300 bases of DNA from Escherichia coli (GTDB taxonomy: Bacteria; Pseudomonadota; Gammaproteobacteria; Enterobacterales; Enterobacteriaceae): the NCBI RefSeq assembly GCF_003334335.1, contig NZ_QOWQ01000222.1; one strand, given 5' to 3'. How positions within the stretch are numbered: the first letter of the stretch is position 1; each line of letters opens with the position of its first letter. The notes below the pieces were generated by a model. The model saw nothing but the letters and a program-made list of their open reading frames with translations. It had not been told where the DNA came from and made no database searches. Below are positions 2 to 299 of the stretch, piece after piece. A program made the position numbers and the translations under genes.

Positions 2-77
2 TGGTGGGTCGTGCAGGATTCGAACCTGCGACCAATTGATTAAAAGTCAACTGCTCTACCAACTGAGCTAACGACCC
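2..77 (-). tRNA. tRNA-Lys (anticodon UUU), complete, 76 nt with encoded CCA
   Basis: The reverse complement of 2-77 reads GGGTCGTTAGCTCAGTTGGTAGAGCAGTTGACTTTTAATCAATTGGTCGCAGGTTCGAATCCTGCACGACCCACCA. It folds by hand into a canonical cloverleaf: acceptor stem GGGUCGU/ACGACCC, D-arm GCUC-AGUUGGUA-GAGC, anticodon stem GUUGA/UCAAU with loop CUUUUAA (anticodon UUU, complement of + 42-44), variable loop UGGUC, T-arm GCAGG-UUCGAAU-CCUGC, discriminator A, then CCA. It matches the E. coli-type tRNA-Lys sequence as I recall it. Which lysT-family paralog (lysT/W/Y/Z/Q/V) cannot be told from this window, so no symbol is given. Confidence 0.95.
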
Positions 78-111
78 ATACGGGTGTTACCTGAAAGATT
101 TTTACTCGGGG

Positions 112-128
112 CCAATCTTTAAGATTGG
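112..128. other. 17-bp perfect palindrome CCAATCTT-T-AAGATTGG overlapping the orphan CCA end
   Basis: + 112-119 ccaatctt is the exact reverse complement of + 121-128 aagattgg, with a single central base (t120). As RNA it could form at most a 6-bp stem with a 5-nt loop. A third copy of the motif, aaagatt at + 94-100, can pair with aatcttt at + 114-120 instead, so two mutually exclusive pairings exist. Confidence 0.55.
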
Positions 129-143
129 TGGGTCGTGCAGGAT
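126..143 (-). repeat. orphan tRNA-Lys 3'-end fragment (tRNA positions 59-76: AUCCUGCACGACCCACCA), third copy of the tRNA 3' terminus
   Basis: + 126-143 (tggtgggtcgtgcaggat) is identical to + 2-19 and + 224-241, i.e. the last 18 nt of the tRNA including CCA. The flanking base 125 (t) also matches position 1. Identity stops abruptly at 144 (g, versus t at position 20), which is inside the T-loop, and nothing resembling the rest of a tRNA lies upstream of it. Confidence 0.85.
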
Positions 144-168
144 GACTCGCTTCGCTCGCCCTACGGGC

Positions 169-184
169 CGTTGCTGGCGCAACG
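169..184 (-). other. inverted repeat / predicted RNA hairpin, 6-bp stem and 4-nt loop
   Basis: + 169-174 cgttgc is the exact reverse complement of + 179-184 gcaacg; the loop is 175-178 tggc. It sits in the GC-rich centre of the spacer and no U-tract follows. Confidence 0.5.
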
Positions 185-197
185 TTATCCTTCACGC

Positions 198-220
198 TTA
201 ACATCTGAGTTTGATGTTAA
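198..220 (-). other. inverted repeat / predicted RNA hairpin, 8-bp stem and 7-nt loop, starting 3 nt downstream of the upstream tRNA's CCA
   Basis: + 198-205 ttaacatc is the exact reverse complement of + 213-220 gatgttaa; the loop is 206-212 tgagttt. In the minus-strand transcript this is UUAACAUC-AAACUCA-GAUGUUAA. The stem is AU-rich (6 of 8 pairs) and no U-tract follows on either strand. Confidence 0.6.
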
Positions 221-223
221 AAC

Positions 224-299
224 TGGTGGGTCGTGCAGGATTCGAACCTGCGACCAATTGATTAAAAGTCAACTGCTCTACCAACTGAGCTAACGACCC
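224..299 (-). tRNA. tRNA-Lys (anticodon UUU), complete, 76 nt with encoded CCA
   Basis: Positions 224-299 are 76/76 identical to 2-77, checked base by base, giving the same cloverleaf; the anticodon UUU is the complement of + 264-266. The 5' end is at 299 and the CCA is encoded at 224-226 (as tgg on the + strand). Only one base of 5' flank (300) is visible, so the upstream neighbour is unknown. Confidence 0.95.

Follow-up and report, generated by a model that had tools for sequence, protein, structure and literature searches.

A GC-rich segment of the lysY–lysZ spacer of Escherichia coli as the probable core of a short RtT-family repeat unit

Between two tRNA-Lys genes of Escherichia coli lies a spacer whose middle, positions 144–197 of the 300-nt stretch of DNA that we analysed (the window), is richer in G+C than the sequence on either side. 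The initial annotation of this DNA took the spacer for a mosaic and the segment for an insert within it, with an orphan tRNA end at its boundary. Is 144–197 such an insert, and what is it? We conclude, with a probability of roughly 80%, that it is the core of a short-form repeat unit of the RtT family (Rfam RF00391), tied to a tRNA gene and lying in the transcribed lysY–lysZ spacer. The element is of an already catalogued kind, rediscovered here from raw sequence, and the finding is an ordinary one: this is a copy of a repeat family with an Rfam model, one that the NCBI pipeline already marks in this operon.

Layout of the lysY–lysZ spacer

The window covers the lysY–lysZ spacer region of the lysT tRNA operon in E. 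coli K-12, which is read from the minus strand; it matches positions 2208–2507 of our locus L001 in that operon, which is placed between cpoB and nadA. The names lysY and lysZ were assigned from operon order and the spacer lengths in PMC4176162. Its features, in the order of transcription, are as follows.

224..299, minus strand: tRNA-Lys(UUU), the upstream gene, lysY by operon order (ARAGORN; Rfam tRNA, 79.2 bits)
198..223, minus strand: AT-rich linker past the lysY CCA with an 8-bp hairpin (arms 213–220 and 198–205), within the 98-nt polymorphic block (inverted repeat I6; spacer MFE fold)
187..196, minus strand: 5' strand of the closing stem P1, RNA CGUGAAGGAU (RNAalifold and single-sequence centroid fold)
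169..184, minus strand: hairpin H1, CGUUGC-GCCA-GCAACG, the stem-loop of the initial annotation (inverted repeat I18; the <<<<<<____>>>>>> helix of Rfam RF00391)
158..168, minus strand: H2 element, GCCC-GUA-GGGC, a predicted hairpin inside the most conserved motif of the family, ACGRCCCGNAGGGYGAG
146..159, minus strand: remnant of hairpin H3 (GC-GAA-GC, 149–155) with conserved GCGAG flanks (comparison with relatives)
126..143, minus strand: orphan copy of tRNA-Lys nt 59–76, AUCCUGCACGACCCACCA (direct repeat D2 with 224–241), of which 134–143 is the 3' strand of P1 and 126–133 the single-stranded ACCCACCA tail
126..223, equivalently 144..241, no strand: 98-nt block present or absent among E. 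coli lineages (comparison with strain E2348/69; repeat spacing 98)
78..125, minus strand: AT-rich lysZ leader, retained in unit-less strains, where an inverted repeat (112–119/121–128) overlaps the orphan CCA (I1, I5)
2..77, minus strand: tRNA-Lys(UUU), the downstream gene, lysZ (ARAGORN; Rfam tRNA)

The repeat unit itself comprises 126–196 (minus strand), about 71 nt, with 144–197 forming its core. A tRNA gene or pseudogene was considered and rejected: apart from the two flanking genes, ARAGORN and the Rfam tRNA model detect no tRNA, and the tRNA-derived part amounts to only 18 nt.

The features that first drew attention to the segment are present. G+C content is 0.648 in 144–197 against 0.396 in 78–125 and 0.269 in 198–223; the hairpin lies where it had been placed (cgttgc 169–174, loop tggc 175–178, gcaacg 179–184), as do the ctcgc direct repeats (146–150 and 155–159). 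Judged singly, hairpin and repeats are statistically weak, and it is comparative data that make both real: when the 54-nt region was shuffled with its dinucleotides preserved, 238 of 5,000 shuffles (4.8%) contained a perfect hairpin of 6 bp or more and 2,117 of 5,000 (42%) a 5-nt direct repeat within 10 nt, and the unit folded alone gives z = −1.83. On comparison with related sequences, the ctcgc repeats (GCGAG on the RNA strand) are the conserved flanks of a variable hairpin, H3, which is nearly degenerate in the window copy.

Relation to the RtT family

Each of the five tRNA-Lys genes in the operon has an RtT-type unit after it. Five RtT matches (46.7–60 bits) were found in the operon, and PGAP labels the terminal unit 'RtT sRNA'. 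The window copy scores 54.4 bits against a gathering score of 45, but with model positions 1–45 aligned onto the upstream tRNA itself; the spacer alone reaches 41 bits, below the gathering score, with E = 3.8e-7 and model positions 46–130 only. When the paralogous spacers are aligned, the conserved block runs from CGTG through CCACCA and the flanks vary. The mosaic spacer proposed initially therefore survives as a discrete conserved module, GC-rich core plus orphan tRNA-Lys end, between flanks that are unconserved among the operon's paralogous spacers.

The founding member of the family is rtT/rttR of the E. coli tyrT operon, reportedly described by Bosl & Kersten in 1991. The window unit shares with it a homologous core, consisting of H1, the ACGRCCCGNAGGGYGAG motif, H3 and GAGUNAUCC. 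Both lie downstream of a tRNA in one transcript, the window unit between lysY and lysZ in the same transcription unit, and both end in the last 18 nt of the upstream tRNA, CCA included; here, 143..126 equals tRNA-Lys nt 59–76, from T-loop position 59 to the CCA, at 18 of 18 positions (k = 18). Both use this copy of the tRNA end in a closing stem, which in the window joins a 5' strand to the tRNA-derived 3' strand with 9 of 10 positions paired and covaries with tRNA type, and both occur as repeated or tandem units. The centre of the window unit carries the family hairpin CGuuGC...GCaaCG, then the CGgCCCGaAGggCGA motif and GAgUaAUCC, aligned to the model with posterior probability '*' at about 66–130.

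There are also differences. The 5' domain of the RtT model (about 24–60: a GAGAA linker, a T-arm-like hairpin ending GGUUCGA and a GAGCG-AGCGAGA hairpin) is absent from the window unit, in which AA and H1 come straight after the 5' strand of P1. Compared with the tyrT units, the window unit, at about 71 nt, lacks model positions 1–45 (the GAGAA linker and a hairpin reproducing the cognate T-stem plus UUCGA) as well as the GUCGAGCG-AGCGAGA hairpin, and it scores 41 bits alone against their 133–138. It stands between tRNA genes, whereas the tyrT units follow the last one; and rtT of tyrT is annotated as an RNA product, whereas the window unit is known here from its sequence alone. The missing 5' domain defines a short form, common to Arg(ACG) units in other Enterobacteriaceae.

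Fold of the unit and covariation

In the predicted fold, CGUGAAGGAU pairs with 143..134 (AUCCUGCACG) at 9 of 10 positions to form P1, with one A·G mismatch that is conserved, and P1 encloses the three hairpins H1, H2 and H3; all four helices were recovered by RNAalifold. Pairing holds in 94.4% of cells, with a covariation score of 0.125; shuffles gave 0.051, and 0 of 500 reached the observed score. In an alignment of 124 distinct homologous units, H1 is paired in 96.5% of cells and shows double compensatory changes at four of its six pairs. Covariation was counted on an alignment fitted to the model, with related sequences (many are paralogues), so that the shuffle control overstates significance. 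H3 is paired in 100% of cells and covaries at all three pairs (124 distinct units); relatives have GGC-GAA-GCC, GAC-GAA-GUC, UCG-AAA-GA, GGCC-GCA-GGCC and others at this place, where the window copy is 2 nt shorter.

The H2 motif is invariant in every operon copy and in the tyrT RtT units. Its conservation across the matches of our genome scan (described below) was forced by the search pattern, and its inner three base pairs are unusable for covariation because that pattern required them; the outer pair is frequently A·C in long forms. The motif may be either a local hairpin or a single-stranded binding site. The long-range pairing that Rfam draws between the CCCGAAGGGCG motif and the 5' domain is inapplicable to the short form, since the domain is absent there.

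P1 varies with the tRNA that the unit follows. Its 5' strand is CAGGGAGGAU in Arg units, GGGGAAGGAU in Tyr units, and GGAGGUGGAU and GGAGAAGGAC in variant Tyr units; these strands pair with their own tRNA end at 8.11 of 10 positions and with the ends of other tRNA types at 6.85 of 10, and they follow species-specific tRNA variants (loci L084 and L096). The minimum-free-energy fold of the whole spacer instead pairs the 5' strand of P1 with the downstream lysZ leader rather than with the orphan end. We set this pairing aside: the leader is unchanged in strains that have no unit, and the pairing of P1 with the orphan end covaries across tRNA types. Outside the unit, the linker hairpin (198–223) is also kept in relatives by compensatory changes (AACGUC/GACGUU in L042; UCAACAU/AUGUUGA in L104).

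Presence and absence among E. coli

The enteropathogenic strain E2348/69 does not have a 98-nt block of this spacer (126–223, equivalently 144–241). Its lysY–lysZ spacer is only 48 nt, corresponding to window positions 78–125, and all four internal units of the operon are missing from it; the tRNA genes are the same, with spacers of 33–51 nt. An 18-nt direct repeat, formed by the lysY tRNA end and the orphan end at a spacing of 98, brackets the block. Among 5,426 genomes, 4,068 carry at least 80% of the spacer and 1,219 gave no match. The unit-less state of E2348/69 is best read as a deletion between the 18-nt repeats, and as loss rather than gain because units are present in related genera.

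The idea of an insert is borne out to the extent that E. coli lineages either have the module as a whole block or lack it; the module is not peculiar to this spacer, as all five tRNA-Lys genes and related genera have it. Alignment with paralogous and related spacers, proposed in the initial annotation as a check, did reveal an indel block, but one of 98 nt (126–223 or 144–241) and not 144–197. An edge at 143/144 is tenable because the block can slide through the direct repeat to 144–241; it is no break in conservation, however, because the orphan tRNA end forms the 3' strand of the closing stem and the conserved unit continues to 126. The other proposed edge, near 197, is untenable: the block ends on the right at 223/224 or 241/242, and the AT-rich hairpin segment 198–223 lies inside it.

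Since E2348/69 is without all internal units, the units are dispensable. We conclude that the unit is a real structured RNA module, without which some E. coli strains exist.

Distribution across tRNA types and genera

A genome scan with a core-only pattern that included the H2 motif gave 171 matches, whose upstream tRNAs were Lys (55), Tyr (36), Arg (28), Pro (15), Ser (6) and Gln (3). In nearly all of them the 18-nt tail is the upstream tRNA's own end, species-specific variants included. The core thus follows at least six tRNA families in Gammaproteobacteria, each with a matching 5' strand, and is recognisable from Enterobacterales to Thioalkalivibrio and Marinobacterium. Related genera have units in the same kind of place, and some units form tandem arrays past the last tRNA and past the terminator.

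Units of the same type inside one genome share 0.87 identity, which indicates concerted evolution, and units of different types are no more alike within one genome than between genomes. In 100 of 122 cases, the most similar core from a different genome follows a tRNA of the same type, and no recent movement of cores between tRNA types was seen in this clustering analysis. In phage and plasmid collections we found almost only chromosomal records filed there, some annotated "RtT RNA"; genuine phage and plasmid records are all but free of the unit. In Citrobacter and Phytobacter, some tRNA-Tyr-like sequences have a T-loop that passes directly into an RtT core.

For annotation, the internal copies of the lys operon are unannotated in the K-12 records that we examined, and the label "intergenic spacer" conceals a conserved folded module. 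For the function of RtT, a question raised since 1991, the results offer three handles. The closing stem follows tRNA identity in at least six tRNA families, the smallest unit measures about 71 nt, and natural E. coli strains without any internal unit provide ready-made isogenic-style comparisons. In the searchable literature we found no description of P1 co-varying with tRNA identity in six tRNA families, nor of the precise 98-nt presence/absence polymorphism. A preprint on pseudouridine mentions rtT only in regard to an antisense sRNA near tRNA-Tyr, and the latest version of the CoCoNuT preprint no longer mentions RtT.

Transcript and processing

The lysT operon is transcribed as one polycistronic RNA, in which RNase P works 3'-to-5' and poorly on long 3' trailers, such trailers being cleared by RNase II and PNPase; the authors attribute the protection of the nascent transcript to transcript structure and treat the spacers by length only (PMC4176162). 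The unit would be co-transcribed with the tRNAs. After RNase P had cut at lysZ, it would stay on pre-tRNA-Lys as a structured 3' trailer, which might then be degraded or, by analogy with the 171-nt rtT RNA of tyrT, be released as an RNA of about 90–100 nt with a tRNA-like CCA end. The annotated rttR runs from 7 nt past tyrV to the orphan CCA. The closing stem of the window unit resembles a T-stem plus part of an acceptor stem, leaving ACCCACCA single-stranded at the 3' end. The repeats could also promote unequal recombination, and so change the number of units and of tRNA genes. Any function would be modulatory and not required for tRNA supply, because all internal units can be lost.

Possible roles and origins

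What, then, might the unit do? One possibility, to which we hold only tentatively, is that the excised unit is a stable small RNA that mimics a tRNA end in trans. The minihelix-like closing stem and NCCA tail would compete for a factor that handles tRNA 3' ends, such as RNase P, the CCA-adding enzyme, 3' exonucleases, a synthetase, RelA with the ribosome or a toxin, and would tune tRNA maturation or the stringent response, as proposed for rtT. Consistent with this, P1 covaries with tRNA identity, a single-stranded NCCA tail is kept in six tRNA families, and the core is conserved across orders of Gammaproteobacteria. The tyrT operon has an annotated rtT RNA of 171 nt whose 3' end is the orphan CCA, RtT-family RNAs beside tRNA-Asn and tRNA-Lys genes of Actinobacillus were detected on Northern blots (PMC4986893), and published work cites rtT as linked to the stringent response. 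Against it, E2348/69 has none of the four internal Lys units, no binding partner is known, and a Northern study of lysT with probes against this spacer (probe positions unchecked) describes no small stable species in the wild type (PMC4176162). The Lys P1, with only 10 bp and a conserved mismatch, would moreover make a poor minihelix.

The comparison with minihelices can be made closer. Acceptor/T-arm minihelices are model substrates of RNase P and the CCA-adding enzyme, and tmRNA has a tRNA-like domain. Like a minihelix, the RtT unit has a helix containing the T-stem 3' strand and acceptor 3' strand, then the discriminator base and CCA, and in Arg units the 5' strand copies the acceptor and T-stem 5' strands (GCACCAG+GGAGG against GCAUCCG+GGAGG in the tRNA). 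In place of a T-loop, however, there is a three-hairpin insert of about 45 nt; Lys units form only three acceptor-stem pairs, so that 8 nt and not 4 are single-stranded at the 3' end; and the unit has conserved mismatches and goes unrecognised by ARAGORN and by the Rfam tRNA and tmRNA models. Another comparison is with 3'ETS-leuZ and the metZWV internal spacers, which reportedly act as sRNA sponges (Lalaouna et al. 2015). There, too, the nucleases that process tRNAs free an RNA segment from a polycistronic precursor, and the segment may act in trans. Those spacers are single-copy sequences that use Hfq and base pairing with RyhB and RybB, whereas RtT units are repeated, end in tRNA-derived sequence and share a conserved fold.

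A more specific form of action in trans, which we offer as a doubtful conjecture, is that RtT units are selected, ancient, tRNA-identity-matched mimics of the acceptor/T-arm that act on a factor reading tRNA 3' ends (a processing nuclease, the CCA-adding enzyme, RelA with the ribosome or an acceptor-end toxin) and so exert isoacceptor-specific control. Three features would be retained in every unit: a closing helix complementary to the 3' strand of its own tRNA, an unpaired NCCA end, and GGCCCGNAGGGCGAG (H2), which is nearly invariant. The short Lys and Arg forms would then represent the smallest version that still functions.

It is likewise doubtful that the unit acts in cis, with the orphan end, to set the order or efficiency of RNase P and exonucleases on the polycistronic transcript, whether it insulates identical tRNAs from mispairing, pairs transiently with the next tRNA's 5' acceptor strand or holds up 3'-to-5' exonucleases. 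The unit does lie between identical tRNA genes, and ACGACCCA of the orphan end is complementary to the lysZ 5' acceptor strand 50 nt downstream (inverted repeat I3); the 3'-to-5' action of RNase P on lysT, its poor action on long 3' trailers and the protection ascribed to transcript structure (PMC4176162) would suit such a role. Such an element is not needed, however, in E2348/69, which has the same tRNA genes and 33–51-nt spacers with no units, and tandem arrays that follow the last tRNA and the terminator have no downstream tRNA to process.

We consider it unlikely that the unit is a by-product without function, either the scar of a recombination event or the decayed remains of a partial tRNA duplicate, carried along and kept uniform by unequal crossing-over between the 3' ends of tRNAs. 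Its structure would then be only apparent, inherited from tRNA stems and GC-rich sequence. The precise presence/absence polymorphism between 18-nt direct repeats, the 0.87 identity of same-type units within a genome (concerted evolution) and the dispensability of the units fit this account, and P1 could reflect descent, given that a perfect complement of a tRNA 3' strand must resemble the tRNA's own 5' strands. H1 and H3, however, have no tRNA counterpart, yet their pairing is kept through compensatory changes; the 5' strands of P1 track species-specific tRNA variants; and a core recognisable from Enterobacterales to Thioalkalivibrio and Marinobacterium is hard to square with neutral decay.

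Very improbable, and largely refuted, is the remnant of a mobile or integrative element: a miniature element that entered at the tRNA T-loop and rebuilt the 3' end of the tRNA, in the manner of attL and attR of integrase-borne islands. Integrative elements are said to use tRNA-gene att sites, with a T-loop class of sublocation (Williams 2002), and the likeness is evident in a layout of tRNA, insert and orphan 3' end starting inside the T-loop at position 59, in a bracketed block present or absent as a whole, and in the T-loop-to-core junctions of Citrobacter and Phytobacter. But the block is only 98 nt long, within a tRNA operon between cpoB and nadA, and no integrase or other gene is associated with it. 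An att scar was rejected on these grounds: the neighbours are tRNA genes, cpoB and nadA, genuine phage or plasmid carriers are essentially absent, and the cores cluster vertically by tRNA type (100 of 122) and not by genome. The units of related genera, moreover, point to loss in E2348/69 and not gain.

Almost no weight attaches, finally, to an intrinsic terminator or attenuator hairpin or a small protein-coding region, both of which we rejected: a consensus scan flags 169–184 with its T-rich tail as terminator-like on the plus strand, but that strand is antisense to the operon, H1 is followed on the transcribed strand by GGCCCGUAGGG with no U-run, and transcription of lysZ and lysQ must pass through the hairpin; a 54-aa open reading frame (40–204, minus strand) crosses the unit, and the tyrT RtT region has an annotated tpr ORF, but the frame extends into lysZ, is not kept among paralogous units because these differ in length by 2 nt, and lies in sequence whose conservation and variation follow base pairs and not codons.

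The lysY–lysZ spacer carries a putative short-form RtT unit

All 300 bases of the window match E. coli K-12 exactly, at 2208–2507 of the K-12 locus (L001), in a tRNA operon flanked by cpoB and nadA. The two tRNA genes are identical in sequence and, because both lie on the minus strand, we read the features of interest on that strand, within a single polycistronic pre-tRNA:

224–299, minus, tRNA-Lys(UUU) (ARAGORN and Rfam)
2–77, minus, tRNA-Lys(UUU) (ARAGORN and Rfam)

The RtT model (Rfam RF00391) scored 54.4 bits on the window, above its gathering score of 45, in an alignment that takes the 5′ third of the model from the tRNA itself; the spacer alone scored 41 bits (E = 3.8e-7, model positions 46–130). 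One RF00391 match follows each of the operon’s five tRNA-Lys genes (46.7–60 bits); the last is the PGAP-annotated ‘RtT sRNA’, and the window copy carries no annotation in the K-12 records examined. The founding RtT units at tyrT scored 133–138 bits over the full model and have their core in common with the window unit. Alignment of the five lys-operon spacers revealed a single conserved block, CGTG(A/T)AGGATAACGTTGC-loop-GCAACGGCCCGnAGGGCGAG-(H3)-CGAGTCATCCTGCACGACCCACCA (H3 being a hairpin), which spans window 196 down to 126 between unrelated flanks. The stretch 144–197, flagged in the initial annotation as a GC-rich insert, is therefore the core of an RtT-type unit, and on sequence grounds the window copy appears to be a short-form member without the 5′ domain of the model. 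The family itself is already known: it is modelled in Rfam, annotated by PGAP in this same operon and present in the literature, where RtT is reported in tyrT and other tRNA operons and adjoins tRNA-Asn and tRNA-Lys genes in Pasteurellaceae (PMC4986893).

The hairpin cgttgc/tggc/gcaacg at 169–184 (H1 below), both copies of ctcgc (146–150 and 155–159) and the compositional contrast (G+C 0.648 in 144–197 versus 0.396 in 78–125 and 0.269 in 198–223) are all present as first annotated. Taken alone they carry little weight: when the 54 nt were shuffled with dinucleotides preserved, 4.8% of the shuffles contained a perfect hairpin of 6 bp or more and 42% a direct repeat of 5 nt within 10 nt, and the unit folded in isolation gave z = −1.83. 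Related sequences are what establish them as genuine. The ctcgc repeats are conserved flanks of H3 (reduced to GC-GAA-GC in the window copy), and the orphan tRNA end at 126–143 is an integral part of the RtT-type unit, not a neighbour of the core.

RtT units end in a copy of the upstream tRNA

We scanned one genome per species with a pattern confined to the core, leaving both the tRNA-derived end and H1 unspecified; about 3 matches were expected by chance. At least 120 loci were recovered and, with two E. coli loci added, 171 matches were listed, mainly from Enterobacterales; other hosts among them were Marinobacterium, Amphritea, Neptuniibacter, Alteromonas, Gilliamella, Nevskiales, Thioalkalivibrio and a Mariprofundus MAG. 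The nearest same-strand upstream tRNA in these 171 was Lys (55), Tyr (36), Arg(ACG or CCG) (28), Pro(CGG or UGG) (15), Ser (6) or Gln (3), with no tRNA within the fetched piece for 28. For nearly all tRNA-linked matches listed, the 18 nt after the core (AUCC...NCCA) equal nt 59–76 of the upstream tRNA, an identity that extends to species-specific variants of Lys (ACGCCCC in Citrobacter and Budvicia) and of Tyr (Tatumella and a Pseudomonadales MAG). Four core matches had neither a recognizable tRNA-derived tail nor an upstream tRNA in the fetched piece (L079, Tahibacter; L092, Alcanivorax; L050, Mariprofundus MAG; L102, Alteromonas) and could be units that have diverged or decayed, or coincidental matches.

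Long units (Tyr, Pro, Ser, Gln and terminal Lys) have one additional hairpin, a copy of the cognate T-stem plus UUCGA; in short units (internal Lys and Arg-ACG), the window copy among them, the 5′ strand of the closing stem runs directly into H1. Beyond an operon’s last tRNA, units often stand in head-to-tail arrays of 2–4 copies, seen at loci L014, L030, L032, L034, L043, L044, L053, L075, L103, L122 and L002, with periods of ~156 nt (Lys, Klebsiella and Pantoea), 166–168 nt (Pro), 173–178 nt (Tyr) and 183 nt (Ser), every copy terminating in the tRNA’s 3′ end. The K-12 terminal Lys unit (L001 1800–2003, minus), downstream of lysQ, lies beyond the operon’s terminator, and a second, identical terminator comes after it (AAAAAAGCGCCCTAAAGGCGCTTTTTT stands downstream of the lysQ CCA and again of the orphan CCA), so the repeat period there includes the terminator; its H1 is swapped for a GCCGC-UC-GCGGC hairpin with tandem G.A on the flanks.

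In Citrobacter and Phytobacter, a tRNA-Tyr-like 5′ part precedes a normal tRNA-Tyr gene by ~42 nt:

L006, ~9300–9410, minus, tRNA-Tyr-like 5′ part
L027, ~1500–1630, minus, tRNA-Tyr-like 5′ part
L117, ~2700–2820, minus, tRNA-Tyr-like 5′ part

Its T-loop (…AAGGTTCGA) runs straight into an RtT core, then ATCCTT and non-tRNA sequence. Either a tRNA T-arm has recombined with a long-form GGTTCGA box, or this is a relic with the core as a T-loop insertion.

A predicted fold closed by the tRNA-derived end

RNAalifold on 41 distinct short units predicted four helices:

196–187 with 143–134, minus, closing stem P1
184–179 with 174–169, minus, H1, the hairpin first annotated
168–165 with 161–158, minus, H2
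Between the two GCGAG boxes, minus, H3

In this structure 94.4% of cells were paired, with a covariation score of 0.125 versus 0.051 for column shuffles (none of 500 reached it) and no more than 0.048 with partners slid. A covariance model from the 41-unit alignment aligned 138 units, 124 of them distinct. Among the latter, 96.5% of H1 cells were paired and four of its six pairs showed compensatory double changes; for H3 the figure was 100%, all three pairs covarying. These values, like those for H2, are biased towards the structure, since the alignment had been fitted to the model and its sequences are related to one another. The inner 3 bp of H2, which the scan pattern had demanded, were invariant; its outer pair was unpaired in 33 of the 124.

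With its 5′ strand anchored on pairing-independent motifs, P1 formed 8.11 of 10 pairs with the end of its own tRNA and 6.85 with the ends of other tRNA types; over the 6 variable positions the values were 4.42 and 3.16.

P1 strands by tRNA type
Tyr: GGGGAAGGAU / AUCCUUCCCC
Tatumella Tyr: GGAGAAGGAC / AUCCUUCUCC
A Pseudomonadales Tyr: GGAGGUGGAU / AUCCACCUCC
Gln: ACGGCAGGAU / AUCCUGCCGU
Arg: CAGGGAGGAU / AUCCUCCCGG
Lys: CGUGAAGGAU / AUCCUGCACG, with a conserved A.G mismatch (U.G in the lysW–valZ copy)

In the modelled fold, P1 is in effect the T-stem plus part of the acceptor stem, with the three-hairpin core standing in for the T-loop and a single-stranded tail ending in CCA.

A 98-nt block is absent from some E. 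coli

The spacer comparison proposed in the initial annotation gave a clear indel in EPEC O127:H6 strain E2348/69 (L123). Its lys operon spacers (35, 51, 48, 33 and 33 nt) each equal the K-12 spacer portion downstream of the orphan CCA, and at the window site it reads CCACCA|ATTTTAAACATTGGTTCCGAGTAGAAATCTTTCAGGTAACACCCGTAT|GGGTCG, in which the sequence corresponding to window 125..78 abuts the tRNA. The block it lacks measures 98 nt, the spacing of the 18-nt direct repeats: window 126–223, or 144–241 by sliding through the repeat. It holds the AT-rich hairpin at 198–223, the core and one tRNA-end copy, so the proposed mosaic stands in substance but its boundary at ~197 does not. Among 5426 complete E. 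coli genomes, 4068 had 80% or more of this spacer and 1219 gave no megablast match. Because related genera (Citrobacter, Pluralibacter, Pseudescherichia, Enterobacter and Phytobacter) carry short Lys units in the same kind of spacer, the unit-less state is best explained by deletion between the 18-nt repeats.

Across L123 1650–2480, compared with L001 2000–3100, all four internal units are missing; the operon has six Lys and two Val tRNA genes, one tRNA-Lys more than K-12, and a duplicated 33-nt lysZ–lysQ-type spacer. E. coli thus varies in both unit number and tRNA gene number. In the searchable literature, which does not include the founding RtT paper, we found no description of this precise polymorphism, of systematic P1 covariation with tRNA identity or of the minimal short form common to Lys and Arg units.

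Possible roles of the unit

Homology establishes family membership; the tRNA-end rule, the fold with its covariation and the DNA-level polymorphism are likewise established. We give most weight to an RNA module that is conserved yet not essential and that also serves as a substrate for recombination. The unit is presumably co-transcribed with the lysT tRNAs. RNase P cuts that transcript at every tRNA 5′ end, 3′ side first, leaving on pre-tRNA-Lys 3′ trailers that can reach about 150 nt and are then removed by RNase II and PNPase, and RNase E cleaves within spacers only under RNase P inactivity (PMC4176162). These trailers are the spacers carrying units, so the folded unit would be a structured trailer. 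By analogy, it may be freed as an RNA with a tRNA-like CCA end; RttR is annotated as 171 nt, starting 7 nt after tyrV and ending exactly at the orphan CCA. With its spacer probes, the lysT study describes no such lys product (PMC4176162).

Two refinements of the module reading are live though unproven: the unit could act in trans, mimicking a tRNA end, or in cis, modulating processing. Since the E2348/69 spacers lack units, tRNA-Lys and tRNA-Val can be made without the internal ones, as a purely neutral scar would allow, but such a scar is at odds with the compensatory changes in H1 and H3 and with the depth of conservation. Origin as a mobile element is unlikely, with no associated genes, no genuine phage or plasmid carriers, and cores that group by tRNA type, not genome (in 100 of 122 cases a unit and its nearest neighbour in another genome shared their type). 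Units of different type were 0.637 identical within one genome versus 0.660 between genomes; same-type units within one genome were 0.872 identical, which argues for concerted evolution.

Neighbouring features

The AT-rich linker after lysY (198–223, minus) forms an 8-bp hairpin, UUAACAUC / GAUGUUAA, kept with compensatory changes in the lysW–valZ spacer and several genera (AACGUC/GACGUU, UCAACAU/AUGUUGA); the linker of the other two K-12 lys spacers is unrelated. At 112–128 an inverted repeat, CCAAUCUU / AAGAUUGG, takes in the orphan CCA, and the equivalent E2348/69 sequence, CCAAUUUUAAACAUUGG, lies directly 3′ of a genuine tRNA CCA; this hairpin would sequester the CCA and trailer start and may be relevant to 3′ processing. 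The orphan end ACGACCCA (129–136) is complementary to the lysZ 5′ acceptor strand UGGGUCGU (71–78), 50 nt downstream, and could therefore compete with lysZ acceptor-stem formation in the precursor.

Below-threshold Rfam matches on the plus strand at 4–77 and 226–299 (Plastid-ycf2, Plastid-psbI-rps4, YrlA and permuted tmRNA) all lie on or antisense to the tRNA genes and were rejected as by-products of tRNA-like sequence. A 54-codon ATG ORF (40–204, minus) running from the linker through the entire unit into lysZ is probably without meaning; the tpr ORF (‘protamine-like’), annotated in the tyrT RtT region, is on the same strand as the tyrT units.
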